NCBI GenBank assembly: GCA_038904395.1
Contig: JBCKKC010000003.1
Coordinates: forward strand, 1,856 to 65,855
Length of the DNA: 64,000 nt
From: Acidimicrobiia bacterium
GTDB lineage: Bacteria; Actinomycetota; Acidimicrobiia; UBA2766
Reading direction: 5' to 3'
The notes under the pieces: generated by a model
What the model saw: only the letters and a program-made list of their open reading frames with translations
Database searches by the model: none
What the model was told of the DNA's origin: nothing
Program-made: the position numbers and the translations under genes
Part shown: piece after piece, positions 48,666 to 56,702 of the stretch
Numbering within the stretch: the first letter of the stretch is position 1
Layout: each line of letters starts with the position of its first letter

Positions 48666-48875
48666 TGGACTCACTACCTGCTTGGCTGTCATTGCAAGGA
48701 GGCGTTGGCAGTGACTGCACCATGCAAAGCGTCTTGATCCGTTTTGAATTGCTCGCTTCGCTCACAAAAATTCGGATTCCTGGATCCTCACGGTCGCCTA
48801 GCGGCTCCCTCAGGATGACTGGGATTCCTGGATCCTCACGGTCGCCTAGCGGCTCCCTCAGGATGACGAAGTGCG
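48666..48875. repeat. MITE/BIME-like repeat copy R5 in the nuoL2-nuoM2 junction
   Basis: A-like arm gtcattgcaaggaggcgttggcagtgac, core fragment gatccgttttgaattgctcgcttcgctcac, and two tandem B arms. Flanked by the direct repeat tcata (48661-48665 and 48876-48880). Confidence 0.85.
48774..48867. repeat. Exact tandem duplication of the 46-bp B arm (period 48 bp)
   Basis: ggattcctggatcctcacggtcgcctagcggctccctcaggatgac occurs at 48774-48819 and again at 48822-48867, separated by tg. Confidence 0.95.
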
Positions 48876-50825
48876 TCATACGCCGGACCCCCCACGCAAC
48901 ATCATGTAGACCACGATGAGCAGCGCGCCACCAAGTATCACAGCCGCGTACAGACGCACGTAACCGGTCTGTAACTTGCGGCCGAAGCGTCCCGCGCTAG
49001 TAATTCCATGCGCAGTTCCTAACACAGCGCCATCAACACCCTTCTGGTCTGCTATTTCTAACACCTTGACAAGGTCCCAGCCCGGCCGTTCAAAGGCCAT
49101 TTGCGTAGCTTCGTCGTAATAAAACTTGTGGGCTGCCAACTGCGGCAAGGGCCCAAAGCGGGTTGCCAGCTTGGCTCTGGAACCGGCCGAGCTCTTGAGC
49201 CAAATCTTGGTAGCGATGGCGACACCGATAAGAGCAACAGCGAGGCTGACGGCAAAGAGCACAATCGTCTCAAGCGACCAGACTTCGCCGGCGCCACCAG
49301 CGGTCTCGAACGTGGGCTCAAGCCACTTGTGCAAAACGTTCCAATCGGGAATACCTAACACTCCGAGCAACGTGGCACCCACAGCAAGTATCCCGAGCGG
49401 CACCGTCAAAACCTTGGGTGACTCATGCGGCTTTACGCCTTCAGCCCAGTTGGCCTTGCCCCAAAAGACTCGGTAGTACTGACGGAACATGTACATCGCT
49501 GTGAGCAAAGCGCCAATGAGGCCCAACACGTATGTGACCTTGCCCCAGCCGTAGTGCGAGGTGAACTCGGCAGATAGAACAGCATCTTTGGACCAGAAAC
49601 CACTGAACGGAAAAATCCCACAGATCGCCAGCAACCCACACAAATAGGTGATGTGGGTGACAGGCATTTTCTTGCGCAGGTTACCCATCTTGCGAATGTC
49701 CTCTTCGCCGCCCATGCCGTGCATAACCGATCCGGCACAGAGAAACAAGAGTGCCTTAAAGAAACCATGCGTGAGCATGTGAAAGAGGCCGGCGGTATAG
49801 CCAGCAGCACCAATACCGACGCCAGCAACCATATAACCGATCTGACTGATCGTCGAATAGGCCAAGATCTTCTTGAAGTTGTTTTGACCGAGCGCAATAA
49901 TCGCCGCCCACACCGTGGTTGCTGAACCGATGAATACCGTGATCAGTTGCGCTGCCGGGGCGAGATCAAATATGGGATGCACTCTGGCGATGAGGTAGAC
50001 GCCCGCTACCACCATCGTTGCCGCGTGCATGAGCGCCGAAACCGGTGTCGGTCCCTGCATGGCGTCGGGCAGCCAAAGGTAAAGAGGGATCTGGGCCGAC
50101 TTGCCGGTGACACCCATCAATAACAACAAGGCAATAGCGGTAGCTACCCCGGTGGATAACAAATCGGTGTGAGCGAACACGACCGAGAAATCCAGGCTGC
50201 CAAAGGTGAAGAAGATAAGCATCATGGCAATTACGAAACCGAAGTCACCAATCCGGTTGACGATCATTGCCTTCTTACCAGCGGTGGCATTGATCGGCTC
50301 GTTATACCAAAACCCAATCAGCAGGTAGCTGCAAGCACCGACTAGTTCCCAACCAACAAAGAGCACCAGGAAGTCGTTGGCGAGAACCAAGATGAGCATG
50401 CCGGCTACGAAGAGGTTCAGGTAGGAGAAAAAGCGAGTGAAATCGGGGTCACCCTTCATGTAGCCGTTGGCGTAGATGTGAATCATCAAGCCAACAAAAG
50501 AGACCAACAACAACATGATTATCGTGAGCGGGTCGACCCGAATCGACGCCTTGACATCGAAGCCGCCACCGGTAATCCAGGTATAGAGATTTTTGGTAAA
50601 GACCCGATGATGTGCGGATTGACTCATCAAACCGACATAAGCCAGGACACTAAAGACGAATGAAAGGCCGACAGCGCCAACGGCAATCAGGCCCCCGAAG
50701 GGTGCCCTTAAACGTTTGCCGAGTAGGGCGAGGAGGCCGGCCGACAAGAGCGGCAACAGCGGGATTATCCAGGCAATTTTAAGAAATGTCATTGACCCCA
50801 CCTCGGCAGCTGTGACCATTCCCAT
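48876..50825 (-). CDS. nuoL: NADH-quinone oxidoreductase subunit L (operon 2); native start probably ATG 50792
   Basis: WELVGACSYLLIGFWY and LWLPDAMQGPTPVSALMHAATMVVAG. Most of the first 11 codons (MGMVTAAEVGS) run through the terminus of repeat copy R6 and its flanking direct repeat. A gaggtgg SD precedes the ATG at 50792. Confidence 0.9.
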   Translation of the reverse strand: MGMVTAAEVGSMTFLKIAWIIPLLPLLSAGLLALLGKRLRAPFGGLIAVGAVGLSFVFSVLAYVGLMSQSAHHRVFTKNLYTWITGGGFDVKASIRVDPLTIIMLLLVSFVGLMIHIYANGYMKGDPDFTRFFSYLNLFVAGMLILVLANDFLVLFVGWELVGACSYLLIGFWYNEPINATAGKKAMIVNRIGDFGFVIAMMLIFFTFGSLDFSVVFAHTDLLSTGVATAIALLLLMGVTGKSAQIPLYLWLPDAMQGPTPVSALMHAATMVVAGVYLIARVHPIFDLAPAAQLITVFIGSATTVWAAIIALGQNNFKKILAYSTISQIGYMVAGVGIGAAGYTAGLFHMLTHGFFKALLFLCAGSVMHGMGGEEDIRKMGNLRKKMPVTHITYLCGLLAICGIFPFSGFWSKDAVLSAEFTSHYGWGKVTYVLGLIGALLTAMYMFRQYYRVFWGKANWAEGVKPHESPKVLTVPLGILAVGATLLGVLGIPDWNVLHKWLEPTFETAGGAGEVWSLETIVLFAVSLAVALIGVAIATKIWLKSSAGSRAKLATRFGPLPQLAAHKFYYDEATQMAFERPGWDLVKVLEIADQKGVDGAVLGTAHGITSAGRFGRKLQTGYVRLYAAVILGGALLIVVYMMLRGGSGV

Positions 50826-51061
50826 ACCCGAGCCAGAGTGGCCCTACCAGGCCCTTCGTCATTGCGAGCCCTGGGCTTTGGCAGGGCGTAGCAATCCAGG
50901 CTTTGCTGTGTTGCGAGCGCAGCGAGCAATTCGAAATGGCCCGAGTCTGATGCTAAAGTCCTGCTCGCAAGCTCGCAGAATATTCTAAAGCCTGGATTGC
51001 TTTGTCGCCGCAGAGCCGGCTCCTCGCAATGACGGGAGGTGGGAGGTGAATTGCTAGTCAT
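50815..51061. repeat. MITE/BIME-like repeat copy R6 in the nuoK2-nuoL2 spacer
   Basis: A arms cgtcattgcgagccctgggctttggcagggcgtagcaatccagg (50857-50900) and cctggattgctttgtcgccgcagagccggctcctcgcaatgacg (50991-51034). Flanked by the 8-bp direct repeat cagctgtg (50807-50814 and 51062-51069). Confidence 0.88.
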
Positions 51062-51083
51062 CAGCTGTGGGTTCCCGATCAAA

Positions 51084-51404
51084 TCAGCCTCGCATCCTGG
51101 ACAAGTTATCTACAGAAGTGTTTGCCCGTCGGCGGAAGATAGCAATCAAAATGCCCAGCCCGACCATGACCTCAACTGCCGCCACAACCAGAATGAAAAA
51201 CACGAAGATCTGGCCGCTCAGGTCGTTGAGCTTGGCGCCAAACGTGATCAACGTGAGATTGACAGCGTTGAGCATGAGCTCAACGCACATAAACATGACC
51301 AACGCACTCTTGCGAACAAGGAAACCAAGCGCTCCAATCATGAAGATCGCAACAGCAAGGAGCAGGTATGCATCTGCACCGGGACGCGTAATAGCAAAAA
51401 ACAT
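51084..51404 (-). CDS. nuoK: NADH-quinone oxidoreductase subunit K (operon 2)
   Basis: 106-aa three-TM protein (FMCVELMLNAVNLTLITF...VVAAVEVMVGLGILI). Confidence 0.9.
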   Translation of the reverse strand: MFFAITRPGADAYLLLAVAIFMIGALGFLVRKSALVMFMCVELMLNAVNLTLITFGAKLNDLSGQIFVFFILVVAAVEVMVGLGILIAIFRRRANTSVDNLSRMRG

Positions 51405-51406
51405 AT

Positions 51407-52204
51407 CTAAACGACCTTTTCTGAATCCGTCGAGGCCGTTGCGGCCGAGCCTGATGCGGATGACGCCGGTTTAGCTGAGCTTGAGGCGGGGGCCGAGGCG
51501 GATGCCACCGGTTCAGCCTCGCTCGAACCTGCCGCGTCACGCGAGACACTTGCATTCCCCGCACCAGAAGCATCGGCGCCTGAGCTGGCTGAATAATCAG
51601 TGTCACGGTCCCCGTCGCTATCGTCGCCTCCATCATCGTCGCCGGGGGCATCACTCCGACCCACTCCAGCACCGCGCAAGCCCTTGGGGCGTTTCGCCAG
51701 TACGATCACACCCACGATGGCGGCCACAACCAGAATCGAGGTGACCTCGAAGGGAAGCAAGTATTGGGTAAAGAGTGACTGGGCGATGGCTTGCACATTG
51801 CCACCCGCCGCAGTAATGGCCGCTTTCGTATCGGTGCCGGGGGCTCCGGTGGGCCAACCGCCCGTAACCAGCAAGATCGGAACAAGAAGCACAGCAACGG
51901 CAGCTAAAAATCCGTAGCGAAAAGAGGCTCGACTCAACATTCGAGTCTCTCGCTCGTCACCTCGGTCAACACCGAGCATCATGATGACGAACAAGAAGAG
52001 CACGACGATGGCCCCGGTATAGACAATGATTTGCACGGTCGATAGGAAGAAGGCGCTTTGCTCAAGGAACAGCACCGCAATCGATACAAGGGTCACCACT
52101 AGCGACAAGGCTGAATGCACGGGGTTGGCCAAGAACACGACTCCGAGAGCGCCGCCCAGGGCGAGAGCGCCAAATATTGCATAGAGAATCCACTCAGCCA
52201 TCAT
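51407..52204 (-). CDS. nuoJ: NADH-quinone oxidoreductase subunit J (operon 2) with ~95-aa acidic/Ser-Ala-rich C-terminal tail
   Basis: NuoJ core in the first ~170 aa, then ...DAPGDDDGGDDSDGDRDTDYSASSGADASGAG...SASAPASSSAKPASSASGSAAT. Confidence 0.88.
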   Translation of the reverse strand: MMAEWILYAIFGALALGGALGVVFLANPVHSALSLVVTLVSIAVLFLEQSAFFLSTVQIIVYTGAIVVLFLFVIMMLGVDRGDERETRMLSRASFRYGFLAAVAVLLVPILLVTGGWPTGAPGTDTKAAITAAGGNVQAIAQSLFTQYLLPFEVTSILVVAAIVGVIVLAKRPKGLRGAGVGRSDAPGDDDGGDDSDGDRDTDYSASSGADASGAGNASVSRDAAGSSEAEPVASASAPASSSAKPASSASGSAATASTDSEKVV

Positions 52205-52211
52205 GGCCTCC

Positions 52212-52429
52212 CTTCAGATCCTCTGTCATCCTGAGCTCTGGCGCCAGCCAGGGCGTGAGGATCCATCTGTAGCGAAGCCGCAGGTCTACCCGCAGATTCG
52301 ATCCATTTTGAATCGCTCGCTGCGCTCGCAACATTCGGATTCCTGGATCCTCACGGTCGGCTAGCGCCTCCCTCAGGATGACGAAAGGCTTGGTAGCGCC
52401 ACTTTTGCGAGGAGGGGGTGAATGGTTAC
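52212..52429. repeat. MITE/BIME-like repeat copy R7 in the nuoI2-nuoJ2 junction
   Basis: B arms gtcatcctgagctctggcgccagccagggcgtgaggatcca and ggattcctggatcctcacggtcggctagcgcctccctcaggatgac. Core shared with R1. Terminus gtgaatggttac (52418-52429). Flanked by a 14-bp direct repeat, ccatcatggcctcc (52198-52211) and ccatcgtggcctcc (52430-52443). Confidence 0.9.
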
Positions 52430-53082
52430 CCATCGTGGCCTCCATTGTTCACTGCAGGAGCGACTCCGGCAACTCCGGCCGTCTCAGCATTCTGACCAAG
52501 TTCGGCTGGAGGAACTCCTCGTCCAGCCTCGCCTGACCACGAAGCGATACCCTCGTATGCAGCGTTGCCGCTGGGAGAAACAGCTCGCATCCAACCACCA
52601 GATTCTTTGAGCGACTCTGGGTCATACCATTCGCCCTGATGCTTCGGTGTGCCATCAGGCTCCACGAGCAACAGGTCCTTGCCGAAGATAGCCTCGTCAC
52701 GATCGGCAAAGCTGAACTCGAACAAGTTCGACATGGTGATCGCCTCAGTGGGACAAGCCTCTACGCACAAGGCGCAAAAGATGCACCGCAGGAAGTTGAT
52801 CTCATATACATAGCCATACCGCTCACCTGGAGCGACCGGAGCGTCAACGGGGTTGTCGGCTCCACGCACGTAAATGCACTTGGCCGGACACACACCAGCA
52901 CACAGCTCGCAACCAATGCACTTTTCCATGCCGTCTTCGTACCGATTGAGCACGTGGCGGCCATGAAAGCGGGGCGGCTTTTCTTTGATCTCTTTCGGAA
53001 ACTGGATCGTGACCGGCTTGCGGAAGAAGTTGTGCATGGTCACGCCCATGGCTTTGACAATCGCACCTAGATTCATTGCCAT
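52426..53082 (-). CDS. nuoI: NADH-quinone oxidoreductase subunit I (operon 2); start taken at MAMNLG
   Basis: CIGCELCAGVCP and CIFCALCVEACP. The ATG at 53082 lies 1 nt after the nuoH2 stop. The stop codon TAA lies in the terminus of repeat R7. Confidence 0.9.
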   Translation of the reverse strand: MAMNLGAIVKAMGVTMHNFFRKPVTIQFPKEIKEKPPRFHGRHVLNRYEDGMEKCIGCELCAGVCPAKCIYVRGADNPVDAPVAPGERYGYVYEINFLRCIFCALCVEACPTEAITMSNLFEFSFADRDEAIFGKDLLLVEPDGTPKHQGEWYDPESLKESGGWMRAVSPSGNAAYEGIASWSGEAGRGVPPAELGQNAETAGVAGVAPAVNNGGHDG

Positions 53083-53083
53083 A

Positions 53084-54124
53084 TCATCGGCCCCCAAACC
53101 AGTTCGGTAAGTGACCCTCAACTTGCAAGGCCACAAGAAATGCGATCACCATCGTGTAGACAAGGTTGATTGGAATCAATACTTTCCAACCAAACTGCAT
53201 GAGCTTGTCATAGCGAATACGTGGCACCGTGACGCGAATCCAGAAGAATATGAATATCAATATGGACGTCTTGAGCAGGAACCAAATCAAGCCCCACAGG
53301 CCAGGAAGTCCGAAAAAGACCGGACCTTGCCAGCCACCCAAAAAGAAGGTTGTAGCCAACGCCGAAATGGTGATGACGTTGATGTACTCCGCTAGATAGA
53401 AGAGGGCAAACCGGATGCCCGAGTACTCGGTATGAAAGCCTCCAACCAATTCAGTCTCAGCTTCAACAAGGTCAAACGGCGGACGGTTCGTTTCGGCAAG
53501 TCCGGCGATGAAGAAGAAAAAGAACGGTATAACGAGCGGGACTATGAACCACCAATAGGTTCCCTGAGCATTCACGATATCTTGCAGTTCCATGGACCCA
53601 GCCAAGATCACTACCGGCACCATTGCCAACGACATGGCAGCCTCGTAGGAAATGACTTGAGCGGACGCTCGCACCCCACCCAAGAGTGGGTATTTTGAGC
53701 CGGACGACCAACCGGCCAGCATCGAGCTGTAAACACCAATCGAGCTCATCGCCAAAAACCACAAAAGGCCGACGTTTAGGTTGGCGATCTGCATCGGAAC
53801 AAAGCGGCCAATGATGTTGAAGCCGGGACCAAACGGGATAATAGCAAAAGCCAAAAAGGCCGGCACCATCGCCAGGATTGGCGCCAATTCGTAGACGATC
53901 CGGTCGGCCCGAAGTGGCACGATGCTCTCTTTGAAAAACAGCTTGATGCCGTCGGCAAGGGTGATCAATACGCCGCCAGGACCAGCTTGATTTGGCCCAA
54001 TCCGAGTCTGCATATACGAAGCAACTTTGCGTTCGCCCCACACTGTAAGCATCGTAAAAATGAGCAGCCCGAAGAAAACGACAATTACTGAAATGGCTTT
54101 AATCAGAAATCCCCAGAAATCCAC
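53084..54124 (-). CDS. nuoH: NADH-quinone oxidoreductase subunit H (operon 2)
   Basis: GWSSGSKYPLLGGVRASAQVISYE and PFDLVEAETELVGGF. Confidence 0.92.
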   Translation of the reverse strand: MDFWGFLIKAISVIVVFFGLLIFTMLTVWGERKVASYMQTRIGPNQAGPGGVLITLADGIKLFFKESIVPLRADRIVYELAPILAMVPAFLAFAIIPFGPGFNIIGRFVPMQIANLNVGLLWFLAMSSIGVYSSMLAGWSSGSKYPLLGGVRASAQVISYEAAMSLAMVPVVILAGSMELQDIVNAQGTYWWFIVPLVIPFFFFFIAGLAETNRPPFDLVEAETELVGGFHTEYSGIRFALFYLAEYINVITISALATTFFLGGWQGPVFFGLPGLWGLIWFLLKTSILIFIFFWIRVTVPRIRYDKLMQFGWKVLIPINLVYTMVIAFLVALQVEGHLPNWFGGR

Positions 54125-54128
54125 AGGA

Positions 54129-56702
54129 CTAATTCACCTTCTTCGCTCTCTTGACGTTCACAATCATTTCCGGCAACAACTTAACAGACTCGACCTGAGC
54201 ATGCGGGATGACCGCTGTGCCCGGCACGACCGACCGGCGAGCCTCAATGGTAAATTCGTGTTCCCAATTCTCTCCTGATGCTGAGACAATTTCGCCAACC
54301 TCGAAGCCCCGTCGGGCTAGGTCTTCAGGATGAATGCGAATCACGGGCCCGGGCCTCAAATCAGCAAGAGATGGACAGTGCCCGACAAGTGAGCCACGAT
54401 CATACAAGGAACGCGACACTTGCAAGGCAAAACGCCCACTAGCCGGACTCACACGTTCGAGAGCCGGTTGACGTGTCTGATCTGAGCGATACTGTGCGGC
54501 AAATAGGTCAGGCTTGAGGCCATTGACTATGCGGCCTTGCGCTTCGTGGACCAGCACGCCTTCGCGGCCAGCCTTGCGTGCCCGAGTGCCTTGGCCAGCC
54601 CCCGGGAAGCGTCCGTCAGCGCCAAGAATGTCGTTGTAAGCGGGAGCCACTTGCGAGATCTCAAACAGGGTTGATTCCGGACTTTGGCAGCCGAATTCGA
54701 TGCCCAAACCGAAAGCTACTTCTCGGAATAGATCGGCATCGCTACTGGCCTGGCCGGGCGCCACAACTTTGGCAACCACACGTTGTACTCGCCCCTCAAT
54801 ATTGGTAACGGTGCCATCGACCTCACCCCAGCCAGCACATGGAATCACCAAGTCGGCAAGGTCAGTGCTGCGTGTGGCAAAGAGATCGAGCGCCACTACA
54901 AAGTCACACTTTTCAAAGGCCGCCCGGGCCAAGTCGGGGTCGGGAAAATCAGCAATCGGATCGCTGCCAACAAGAAAGAGCACGTCGATATCACCACGGG
55001 CGGCAGCTTCGAGAATCCCGCGTGTGTCTCGACCCGGAACGGTCGGCACCTTGCCCGTCCACACTTTGGCCAGCTGGCCTCGGTTCTCGGGATCATCAAC
55101 GCTAACCCTGCCTGGCAAAAGTTCAGGCGACAAGCCCATGTCAAGAGCACCGTGAGCGTTCGAGCGGCGCAGCACAGGCATGAGTTTGACTCGGTCACCA
55201 AGCTGAGCGGCAAGCTCAAGCGCCCACAAGCACAGTTGAGCGGGATCCTGGGTAAGGCTCTGGCGCCCCACAATAAGGACGACATTGCCCTCAGTCGGCA
55301 AGTCGGTTGCGGTAACGACGTCAGCAGTCACCGTGCGTTTCTTGGCGAACTGATCCAGGCCCGATTGCATACCGCCGGCAATCAACAAGGGGACATCGTG
55401 GTTGTCAGCAGCGTCTCGGACACGCAAGTAAAGGATGGGGAGTTCGTCTTTGAGATCGGGACAAGCCAACACAATCGCTGCTGCTGATTCGAGATCACCA
55501 ATCGTGGCCCGGTTCTGAGCGCCGGCAACAAAGGCTGCCGGCAAGCCATCGTCGAGTTGACAGTCAACGTCGTTACTGCCACAAACAACCCGCATAAATT
55601 TCGAGACAACGTAAGCCTCTTCGTTGGTGAGGCGAGCACCACCGATCGCGGCAACTTTCACATCTTGGTGAAGCTTGGCACAAATCATTTCAACGGCTTG
55701 GGCCCATGTGACCTCTTCGGCGGCAACATGCTTGCCCTCGCGAGGCTGGCGCAACGGCGTAGTAAGTCGCTCGTCGGATGCCACATATTCGTAGCCAAAT
55801 CGGCCCTTGTCACACAACCAGCCCCAGTTGACAGACTCTGTGTCAACCCCATTGAGGCGAATCGGCACATCACGAGTTTCATATAGCACCCCGCGACAGC
55901 CCACGGAACACATAGTGCAAGTGGTTTCGGCAGCGGTGACATCCCATGGACGGGCCTTGAACCGGTATGGCGTGGCCGTCAATGCTCCGACCGGACAAAT
56001 CTGCACAACGTTGCCAGAGAAGTATGAGCTAAAGGGCGCGTTCGGGTAGGTGACAATGTGGAGATCGTTGCCGCGATGACTGAATTCCAAAAGCGGATCA
56101 CCCGCCACTTCGGCGGCAAAACGAGTGCAACGAGCACATTGAATGCAGCGCTCCCGGTCAAGCAAAACTAAGTCGGAAACCGGAATGGGCTTCTCGAAGT
56201 GACGTTTGGCCTCAACAAAACGTGATTCGCCCGGACCAAACGACATCGTGTGGTCTTGGAGCGGGCACTCGCCACCCCTGTCACATACAGGGCAGTCGAG
56301 GGGATGGTTGATGAGGAGAAACTCCAGAACCCCTTCCTGGGCCTTTTCGACCTCGGGAGTCTTGGTCTCAACCTTCATGCCGTCAGACACTTCATGCCAA
56401 CAGGCGGGCTTGAGCCCCAGTCCTTCAATGTCAACGAGGCACATGCGGCACATCGCCACTGTACGCAGACGTGGATGCCAGCAAAAGCGAGGGATATAGA
56501 CACCCTGGTCCTCAGCAGCCTTGATTAGGAGCTCACCCTTGGGCACTTGCATTTGCTTGCCATCAACGGTGATCCCAACTAGGTCCGTTGCCTGCTCCGC
56601 CACGGCGGTACTTTGGCCCGATGCCCGCCGCACTACAACAGGCGACCCCTTTTCGGAGTCGAGGCTCGTTTTGAATTGAGGTTGTTTGGGCGCATCAGAC
56701 AT
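54129..56702 (-). CDS. nuoG: NADH-quinone oxidoreductase subunit G (operon 2)
   Basis: 857 aa. N-terminal 2Fe-2S/4Fe-4S motifs: CWHPRL...CRMCLV, CPVCDRGGECPLQD and CIQCARCTRF. Confidence 0.92.
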   Translation of the reverse strand: MSDAPKQPQFKTSLDSEKGSPVVVRRASGQSTAVAEQATDLVGITVDGKQMQVPKGELLIKAAEDQGVYIPRFCWHPRLRTVAMCRMCLVDIEGLGLKPACWHEVSDGMKVETKTPEVEKAQEGVLEFLLINHPLDCPVCDRGGECPLQDHTMSFGPGESRFVEAKRHFEKPIPVSDLVLLDRERCIQCARCTRFAAEVAGDPLLEFSHRGNDLHIVTYPNAPFSSYFSGNVVQICPVGALTATPYRFKARPWDVTAAETTCTMCSVGCRGVLYETRDVPIRLNGVDTESVNWGWLCDKGRFGYEYVASDERLTTPLRQPREGKHVAAEEVTWAQAVEMICAKLHQDVKVAAIGGARLTNEEAYVVSKFMRVVCGSNDVDCQLDDGLPAAFVAGAQNRATIGDLESAAAIVLACPDLKDELPILYLRVRDAADNHDVPLLIAGGMQSGLDQFAKKRTVTADVVTATDLPTEGNVVLIVGRQSLTQDPAQLCLWALELAAQLGDRVKLMPVLRRSNAHGALDMGLSPELLPGRVSVDDPENRGQLAKVWTGKVPTVPGRDTRGILEAAARGDIDVLFLVGSDPIADFPDPDLARAAFEKCDFVVALDLFATRSTDLADLVIPCAGWGEVDGTVTNIEGRVQRVVAKVVAPGQASSDADLFREVAFGLGIEFGCQSPESTLFEISQVAPAYNDILGADGRFPGAGQGTRARKAGREGVLVHEAQGRIVNGLKPDLFAAQYRSDQTRQPALERVSPASGRFALQVSRSLYDRGSLVGHCPSLADLRPGPVIRIHPEDLARRGFEVGEIVSASGENWEHEFTIEARRSVVPGTAVIPHAQVESVKLLPEMIVNVKRAKKVN

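Follow-up and report, generated by a model that had tools for sequence, protein, structure and literature searches.

The window analysed here, a stretch of 64,000 nucleotides from contig JBCKKC010000003.1 of an uncultured Acidimicrobiia bacterium, carries on its minus strand a run of respiratory complex I (nuo) genes from nuoG to nuoL, and between nuoI and nuoJ lies a hairpin repeat, R7, which is a copy of a family of miniature inverted-repeat transposable elements (MITEs) (Table 1). The evidence for the locus is the sequence of one metagenome-assembled genome (MAG) of 2,000,772 bp in 123 contigs that is approximately 70% complete. NuoI contains two Fer4 (4Fe-4S) domains in Pfam and has homologues that carry the name NuoI in Acidimicrobiia MAGs, with the window's own protein being unique within a collection of 5.8 billion proteins, and NuoJ covers profile positions 1–146 of the 146 of Pfam Oxidored_q3 (E = 4.6e-37). 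Both open reading frames (ORFs) are intact despite the repeat between them, with the stop codon of nuoI and the start codon of nuoJ 221 nt apart. This spacer folds as a long hairpin (RNA fold z = -4.67), and R7 is probably co-transcribed in this form inside the nuo mRNA. No intrinsic terminator was found on the coding strand of the element, and Rfam returned only a sub-threshold chance match to the L31 leader (19 bits).

R7 is bracketed by a direct repeat, CCATCATGGCCTCC at 52198–52211 and CCATCGTGGCCTCC at 52430–52443, which the initial annotation of the window had described as a 14-bp flanking duplication at these positions. A direct-repeat search extended the similarity to 17 nt at 88% identity (52198–52214, CCATCATGGCCTCCCTT, against 52430–52446, CCATCGTGGCCTCCATT). 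The 14-mer, CCATC[A/G]TGGCCTCC, is present at only these two sites in the genome and is therefore specific to the locus rather than part of a family consensus found at unrelated loci; a pair like this would arise by chance at two fixed positions with a probability of approximately 1e-7. The TAA of nuoI (52426–52428) lies within the terminal GTGAATGGTTAC of the element, as does base 52429, which completes the final Gly codon, GGG. The nuoJ ORF begins at ATGATG (52204–52199), preceded by GGGAGG (52212–52207). Thus the proposals that the element terminus now supplies the stop codon of nuoI, and that the other repeat copy carries the Shine–Dalgarno (SD) sequence and ATG of nuoJ, both stand. When the element is taken out together with one of the repeat copies, what remains is AACAATGGAGGCCA(T/C)GATGGCTGAGTGG, the sequence that had been reconstructed before, in which nuoI ends GGHDG* and the ATG of nuoJ is embedded. 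The empty site was taken as the junction AACAATGGAGGCCAYGATGGCTGAGTGG, with AACAATGGAGGCCAYGATGG joined directly to CTGAGTGG, and the reconstructed ancestral junction is identical whether the duplication is read as 8 or as 14 bp.

An overlapping junction compatible with this reconstruction was observed in all seven of the nearest relatives (six same-family genomes, and Logan ERR14173675 as the closest contig, with 84% amino acid identity in the NuoI core), in which nuoI and nuoJ overlap by ATGA or GTGA with neither spacer nor MITE. An SD-like GGAG or GAGG is located 5–9 nt upstream of the nuoJ start in these relatives, inside the 3' end of nuoI, and the NuoJ N-termini of relatives read M-S-[AG]-E-W or M-A-E. 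In two genomes of the same class, L038 and L046, nuoI ends ...GAT GGC TGA overlapping ATG GCT GAG, which is the ATGGCTGA overlap of the reconstruction. The nuoJ/nuoK and nuoK/nuoL junctions are compact in the nearest relative, which indicates that the MITEs in this nuo operon are derived. An origin of the junction as an assembly artefact is scarcely credible. A repeat-rich MAG of 123 contigs and 70% completeness, with hundreds of related repeat modules, is open to such errors, but the R7 copy is unique and its nearest copy only 87% identical, making its assembly unambiguous. Furthermore, both flanks are single-copy nuo genes in conserved order with open ORFs, and a chimera would not account for a direct repeat of 14 bp that is imperfect and whose one difference is synonymous.

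Searched against the genome, a 218-bp query gave 68 matches with identities of up to 87–92%, and a more sensitive blastn search gave 315 pieces; the family is built as a mosaic from hairpin modules. Its copies are bounded by terminal inverted repeats (TIRs) of 10–12 bp, GTAACCATTC(AC), and create a target-site duplication (TSD) of 8 bp. The genome contains 66 occurrences of the TIR motif GAATGGTTAC, and similarity breaks off directly after it, identifying it as the true terminus. Inverted pairs of GTAACCATTC and GAATGGTTAC number 28, with the two motifs 117–259 bp apart; the TSD is exactly 8 bp in 12 of these pairs and 8 bp with one mismatch in approximately four more, and no other length was found. 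R7 is small and non-coding, with only spurious ORFs inside, and it shares with MITEs the membership of a multi-copy family with TIRs and a TSD of fixed length. When its degenerate left TIR is counted R7 measures 224 bp, so that the initial annotation was correct in having the repeats bracket the element and short in giving its length as 218 bp.

A search for an autonomous partner found no TIR pair 600–4000 bp apart with matching flanks in the approximately 70%-complete MAG. A TIR near the end of contig C8 was considered as belonging to an insertion sequence (IS) and rejected, as it is part of a 38-bp TIR-to-TIR mini-copy (C8:42964–43001). An uncultured Actinomycetota MAG (L064, CAZOWS010000309.1) contains, at positions 768–872, a mini-copy of 104 bp that has identical 12-bp TIRs and a TSD of 8 bp, TCTTCAAG, and the element was absent from 40 family- and class-level relatives.

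A single transition separates the two TSD copies of R7 and leaves the His codon of nuoI synonymous (CAT/CAC), and the sequence directly inside the nuoJ-side copy is where R7 departs from its family. In canonical copies this side is ordered TSD, GTAACCATTCA, a C-rich spacer of 8–15 nt and GTCATCCTGAG, and in R7 it reads CCATCATG, GCCTCCCTTCA, GATCCTCT and GTCATCCTGAG, with GCCTCCCTTCA in the exact place of the canonical GTAACCATTCA and with the 11-nt TIR and 8-nt spacer matching the lengths in copies C30 and C42. Read outward on the coding strand, CTCAGGATGAC is followed by 9 nt, the modal spacer of the family, and then by GAAGGGAGGC and CATGATGG. The degenerate GAAGGGAGGC agrees with GAATGGTTAC at six of ten positions (seven of 11). 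Its outer tip on the coding strand is GGAGGC as opposed to the canonical GGTTAC, and the nuoI-side flank has the same six bases, GGAGGC, ahead of its TSD, which gives the repeat its apparent length of 14 bp. The extra GCCTCC of the direct repeat therefore fills TIR positions 1–6, of which G, C and C are native to the TIR and the change of TAA to CCT introduces the bases of the flank.

Table 1. Genes of the nuo run, parts of R7 and other MITE copies with a replaced TIR tip. Positions are those of the window unless a contig is named.
Feature	Position	Strand	Description and basis
nuoG	54129–56702	minus	ORF list
nuoH	53084–54124	minus	ORF list
nuoI	52426–53082	minus	218 aa from ATG at 53082 (ORF as listed 52426–53136); ORF list, Pfam, homologue names
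nuoJ, intact	51407–52204	minus	ORF list, Pfam Oxidored_q3
nuoK	51084–51404	minus	ORF list
nuoL	48876–50825	minus	ORF list
R7, whole MITE copy, 224 bp	52206–52429		Modular hairpin family; alignment with nine full-length copies
Nested inverted arms of R7	52225–52235/52372–52382 and 52254–52265/52344–52355		Inverted-repeat search
Intact TIR, nuoI side, GTGAATGGTTAC (coding strand GTAACCATTCAC)	52418–52429		Supplies G and TAA to nuoI
TSD, nuoI-side copy, CCATCGTG (coding strand CACGATGG)	52430–52437		Directly outside the intact TIR, 8 bp
GCCTCC (coding GGAGGC, Gly-Gly codons of nuoI)	52438–52443	minus	Native flank just beyond the TSD
Rewritten TIR, GCCTCCCTTC (coding GAAGGGAGGC)	52206–52215	minus	Expected GTAACCATTC (GAATGGTTAC)
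TSD, nuoJ-side copy, CCATCATG (coding CATGATGG)	52198–52205		nuoJ ATGs at 52204–52202 and 52201–52199
MITE copy on C18	C18:14950–15230		Flank repeat 20–24 nt including 8-bp TSD; far TIR replaced by a copy of the gene's last codons and native TAA
MITE copy on C22	C22:11630–11910		Flank repeat ~24 nt including 8-bp TSD; far TIR replaced by flank copy with two mismatches and one indel
MITE copy on C2	near 76610 (oriented coordinates)	minus	Repeat 14 nt including TSD; GCAGCTGTTCAC instead of GTAACCATTCAC
MITE copy on C7	near 38092 (oriented coordinates)	minus	Repeat 12 nt including TSD; TGAA, then TIR positions 7–10 (ATTC)

A reading of all 14 bp as the TSD does not hold, given that the family makes TSDs of 8 bp only and that the additional 6 bp occupy positions of the TIR. 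The initial annotation had suggested that part of the repeat might be element tail, and this was right as to the positions of those 6 bp, although what now stands there is a copy of the flank and not TIR sequence. An unusually long staggered cut, with the whole 14 bp as TSD and an element lacking the outer part of one TIR, is very improbable. The duplication of the 14-mer with one mismatch, unique to the locus, would fit such a cut, and a few families of IS do vary in TSD length. However, the TSD is exactly 8 bp in all informative copies of this family, and the loss of 6 nt of TIR tip, the equal excess of 6 nt in the repeat and the preserved register with canonical copies would have to coincide. 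In addition, an end missing its terminal 6 nt is an unlikely substrate for strand transfer by DDE transposases.

The difference at the left end is local. Compared with the consensus of nine full-length copies, R7 differs at 15 of 149 conserved columns and ten of these fall within the terminal approximately 30 positions on the left, with the interior diverging by approximately 4%, on par with other copies; this clustering points to a local change and not to drift. A subfamily variant was considered as the source of the left end and rejected, since TTCAGATCCTCT and GCCTCCCTTCAG are without close copies at other element ends.

The insertion left both genes intact. The C-terminus of NuoI is kept as GGHDG*, with GG|C TGA having become GG|G TAA, and the ATGs of nuoJ are retained in the second TSD copy. 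The GCCTCC at 52438–52443, within the 3' end of nuoI, served nuoJ as its SD before the insertion and presumably templated the six extra repeated bases; the GGAGGC in the left TIR restores this SD at its original spacing. GGAGG stands 5 nt before the second ATG (52201), which is most likely the nuoJ start. A canonical TIR at this place would read ATG GTT ACC ATG ATG GCT, with its own ATG in frame with nuoJ, and in R7 this outward ATG has become AGG. On the same side of the element, its CTCAGGATGACA module and the TSD form a promoter-like sequence (ATGACA-18-CATGAT, 9/12, minus strand, 52229–52200), from which transcription would start inside nuoJ, and the match is thus probably meaningless.

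The history that we favour, and hold to be fairly probable, is that the MITE inserted with an 8-bp TSD into the overlapping junction and that the tip of its left TIR was rewritten afterwards by a templated event. The element entered the 8-nt window CATGATGG of the junction ...GGA GGC CAT GAT GGC TGA, in which the ATG of nuoJ is embedded, and its insertion made the usual 8-bp duplication and let nuoI read into the G-TAA of the TIR. The later rewriting may have taken place during replication slippage or the repair of a break, perhaps one made by the transposase, with one TSD copy priming on the other across the hairpin. The jumping strand would have copied a few bases of the flank and returned to the element at the microhomology ATT(C), in the manner of an abortive precise excision. 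At R7 such a product may have been retained because it restored the SD of nuoJ, which would have lost its translational coupling to nuoI and come to need a ribosome-binding site of its own. With only one good TIR, R7 is now probably immobile.

Other rewritten ends were sought by screening every TIR end for a repeat of the flank exceeding 8 nt. Seven matches were found at the TIR boundary, of which those on C24 and C103 have other explanations, compared with 0–3 at each control offset of 10–100 nt after two contig-start artefacts had been set aside. In the copies on C18, C22, C2 and C7 one TIR is intact and the tip of the other is replaced by 4–16 nt copied from beyond the opposite TSD. The copied tract at C18 consists of the last eight codons and native TAA of an ORF of 535 codons, whose present stop is the TAA of the TIR. 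The flank tract in R7, C2 and C7 ends where flank and TIR share (A)TT, and in R7 and C2 the base at the joint matches neither. These four additional copies favour a secondary, templated event over a staggered cut of 14 bp, and the recurrence of the replacement indicates that the copying process acts at element ends irrespective of ribosome-binding sites.

An explanation that we consider unlikely but worth serious weight has the TIR tip of an ordinary insertion with an 8-bp TSD altered by separate point substitutions (TTA to AGG, and T to G) that were fixed by selection for a nuoJ SD. The identity with the flank would then be convergence on one motif at one spacing. Because G, C and C are already common to TIR and flank, only three substitutions are needed to reach a perfect GGAGG 5 nt ahead of the second ATG, a place at which all relatives keep an SD-like motif. 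The T to G change is not derivable from the flank; with it the run of purines grows to GGGAGG and the ATG of the TIR, a competitor, is lost. The substitution within the TSD itself also implies an insertion old enough for some point changes. Against this, four changes in 10 nt contrast with approximately 4% in the element interior, and at C18 and C22 the TIR tip has given way to flank-derived tracts of 12–24 nt. The C18 tract is the 3' end of a gene with its native stop and restores no SD, showing a copying process to operate in the family. Moreover, the in-frame ATG of the TIR and the G-rich SD of the element could have been used by nuoJ right after insertion, which would weaken the selection that the substitutions require.

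Several points nevertheless weigh against a templated rewriting after insertion. With G, C and C of the six extra bases shared by TIR and flank, only TTA to AGG needs to be explained, and selection for GGAGG alone could be sufficient for this. Position 4 of the TIR from the inside (GAAT to GAAG) matches neither TIR nor flank, requiring at least one separate point change in any model. The predicted accessibility of the SD improves only modestly, its mean unpaired probability rising from 0.0 with a canonical TIR to 0.32 with the rewritten one, and in this prediction the core of the SD remains paired. Scans of metagenomes for empty-site or intermediate alleles returned no match to a 23-mer of the nuoI tail or to a degenerate pattern of the nuoJ N-terminus, and a protein search returned no NuoI above 76% identity over the full length, or 84% for a partial sequence. 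As these searches yielded neither a sister strain nor an empty-site allele, the succession of events is deduced from one sequence. The IS66 transposase (PF03050), whose relevance is taken up below, has no match in the approximately 70%-complete MAG itself, nor in the L064 genome.

Taken beyond R7, the replaced tips make it conceivable, as a tentative proposal, that the family undergoes recurrent patching after insertion, in which a strand jumps from one TSD to the other, copies 4–16 nt of flank and overwrites the outer TIR. If true, patching would immobilize a copy and could restore a signal located just outside the target, which at nuoI/nuoJ is the ribosome-binding site of the downstream gene. 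Together with the inbound TAA and outbound SD and ATG of the TIR, it would make this transposon unusually suited to living inside operons.

The outbound start codon of the TIR (GA-ATG-GTTAC) is in frame with open frames of at least 200 codons in 22 cases genome-wide, versus 6 and 10 in the other two frames, and is preceded by the G-rich GGAGGGGG tract of the element, as at C31:2123(-), C27:20353(+) and C1:69500(+). Many genes may accordingly begin at the outward ATG of the element, or else tolerate it. Stop codons are donated by the TIR at approximately six other long ORFs without enrichment of a frame, and stop donation as a selected property of the family was rejected (seven ORFs of at least 200 codons end at the TIR TAA, and five and five in the other frames).

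Further repeats occupy other junctions of the nuo operon. A second MITE copy fills the nuoK–nuoL spacer (50812–51083), a gap of only 10 nt in the closest relative, L061. The ATG in its outward TIR, GAATGGTCAC, is in frame with the 647-codon nuoL frame (MVTAAEVGSMTFLKI...), and the probable native nuoL start, ATG ACA TTT with a GAGGTGG SD, is nine codons downstream of it. Tandem half-modules (GTCATCCTGAGGGAGCCGCTAGGCGACCGTGAGGATCCAGGAATCC, twice) extend from directly after the nuoL TGA to the start of the next gene (48666–48875), making this the third repeat-filled junction in the operon. At R7 itself, the last codons of nuoI, GCCTCCATTGTTCAC (plus strand, 52438–52452), resemble the TIR GTAACCATTCAC at nine of 12 positions with a 3-nt gap (empirical p approximately 0.005). 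The likeness may be due to chance, to microhomology favouring the patch or to a trace of a preference for TIR-like targets, and a general transposase preference of this kind showed only a weak, non-significant trend. In the 3' third of nuoJ (51407–51680) a low-complexity, Asp/Ser/Ala/Gly-rich C-terminal tail of approximately 90 aa is encoded, which is missing in L061 (NuoJ of 204 aa).

MITEs located within bacterial operons and transcribed with them are familiar from the Correia/NEMIS elements of Neisseria, from ERIC and from the RUP and BOX elements of pneumococcus. The present family resembles these in being short, non-coding, bounded by TIRs, hairpin-forming, of high copy number and tolerated between co-directional genes, and in having ends that can carry expression signals. 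It has no sequence relation to them, and its TSD is 8 bp as opposed to the TA of Correia; a TIR with inbound TAA and outbound ATG, and a body of CGTC-tagged hairpin modules resembling repetitive extragenic palindromes (REPs), set it further apart.

Mycobacterial interspersed repetitive units (MIRUs), reportedly described by Supply et al. in 1997 in Mol Microbiol, are likewise actinobacterial repeats in the intercistronic junctions of operons, whose ends are said to overlap the upstream stop and downstream start with both genes translatable. MIRUs are said to be tandem units of 46–101 bp without TIRs or TSDs that contain a small ORF preserving translational coupling, whereas R7 is a transposon with TIRs, TSD and a long hairpin that parts the two cistrons by 221 nt.

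The inner arms of R7 have the form of CGTC-tagged REPs, a 20–40-bp palindrome with an unpaired CGTC tag at one end. They are palindromic with CGTC ahead (cGTCATCCTGAG...CTCAGGATGACg), and such REPs also lie mostly between co-directional genes. The right arm is CTCAGGATGACGaa (reverse complement ttCGTCATCCTGAG) and the left arm tGTCATCCTGAG, where the consensus of other copies has cGTC. The 2 Mb contain 270 occurrences of CTCAGGATGAC when one mismatch is allowed, and these often form inverted pairs. Unlike those REPs, which have neither TIR cap nor TSD, the hairpins here are packed between TIRs of 10–12 bp with TSDs of 8 bp. No transposase is known for the CGTC-tagged superfamily according to Di Nocera, De Gregorio and Rocco (2013; PMC3733652).

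As to the transposase family, the TIR of ISDge4 from Deinococcus geothermalis (IS66 family, ISBst12 group) is GTAACTGCTCAGCA and its direct repeat 8 bp (PMC12898284). The TIR of the present family, GTAACCATTCAC, also begins GTAAC, thereby conforming to the GTAA(G/C) start and 8-bp TSD of the ISBst12 group, and beyond these first five bases the TIRs are unrelated to those of ISDge4. The sole PF03050 match, an IS66 gene of a Pirellulales MAG, was rejected as a partner as it has no matching TIRs. Kinship with IS66/ISBst12 is therefore a lead only.

Precise and nearly precise excision by slippage between TSDs across a palindrome is known from Tn10 and Tn5, and template-switch mutagenesis at quasipalindromes from the Lovett laboratory. 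The mechanism proposed for R7 shares with these the short direct repeats flanking a hairpin, a nascent strand that jumps between the repeats and a return guided by microhomology. The known processes delete the element or perfect the palindrome, whereas at R7 the outcome would be a short patch templated by the flank, with one TIR tip destroyed and the element itself retained; we know of no description of such an outcome for MITEs.

R7 is thus an ordinary MITE insertion, tolerated inside an operon, with an instructive overwritten TIR tip. It offers a case that can be followed base by base, in which a transposon has entered the translationally coupled overlap of an essential respiratory operon and killed neither gene: the TIR supplies the stop codon, the TSD provides the start codon, and the ribosome-binding site has been formed anew at the TIR tip. 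A likely trap for annotation is exposed as well, as an apparently long TSD can be a normal TSD joined to an overwritten TIR tip. If true, templated patching would be a simple route to the fixation and domestication of MITE copies and would provide a searchable signature in repeat-rich genomes.

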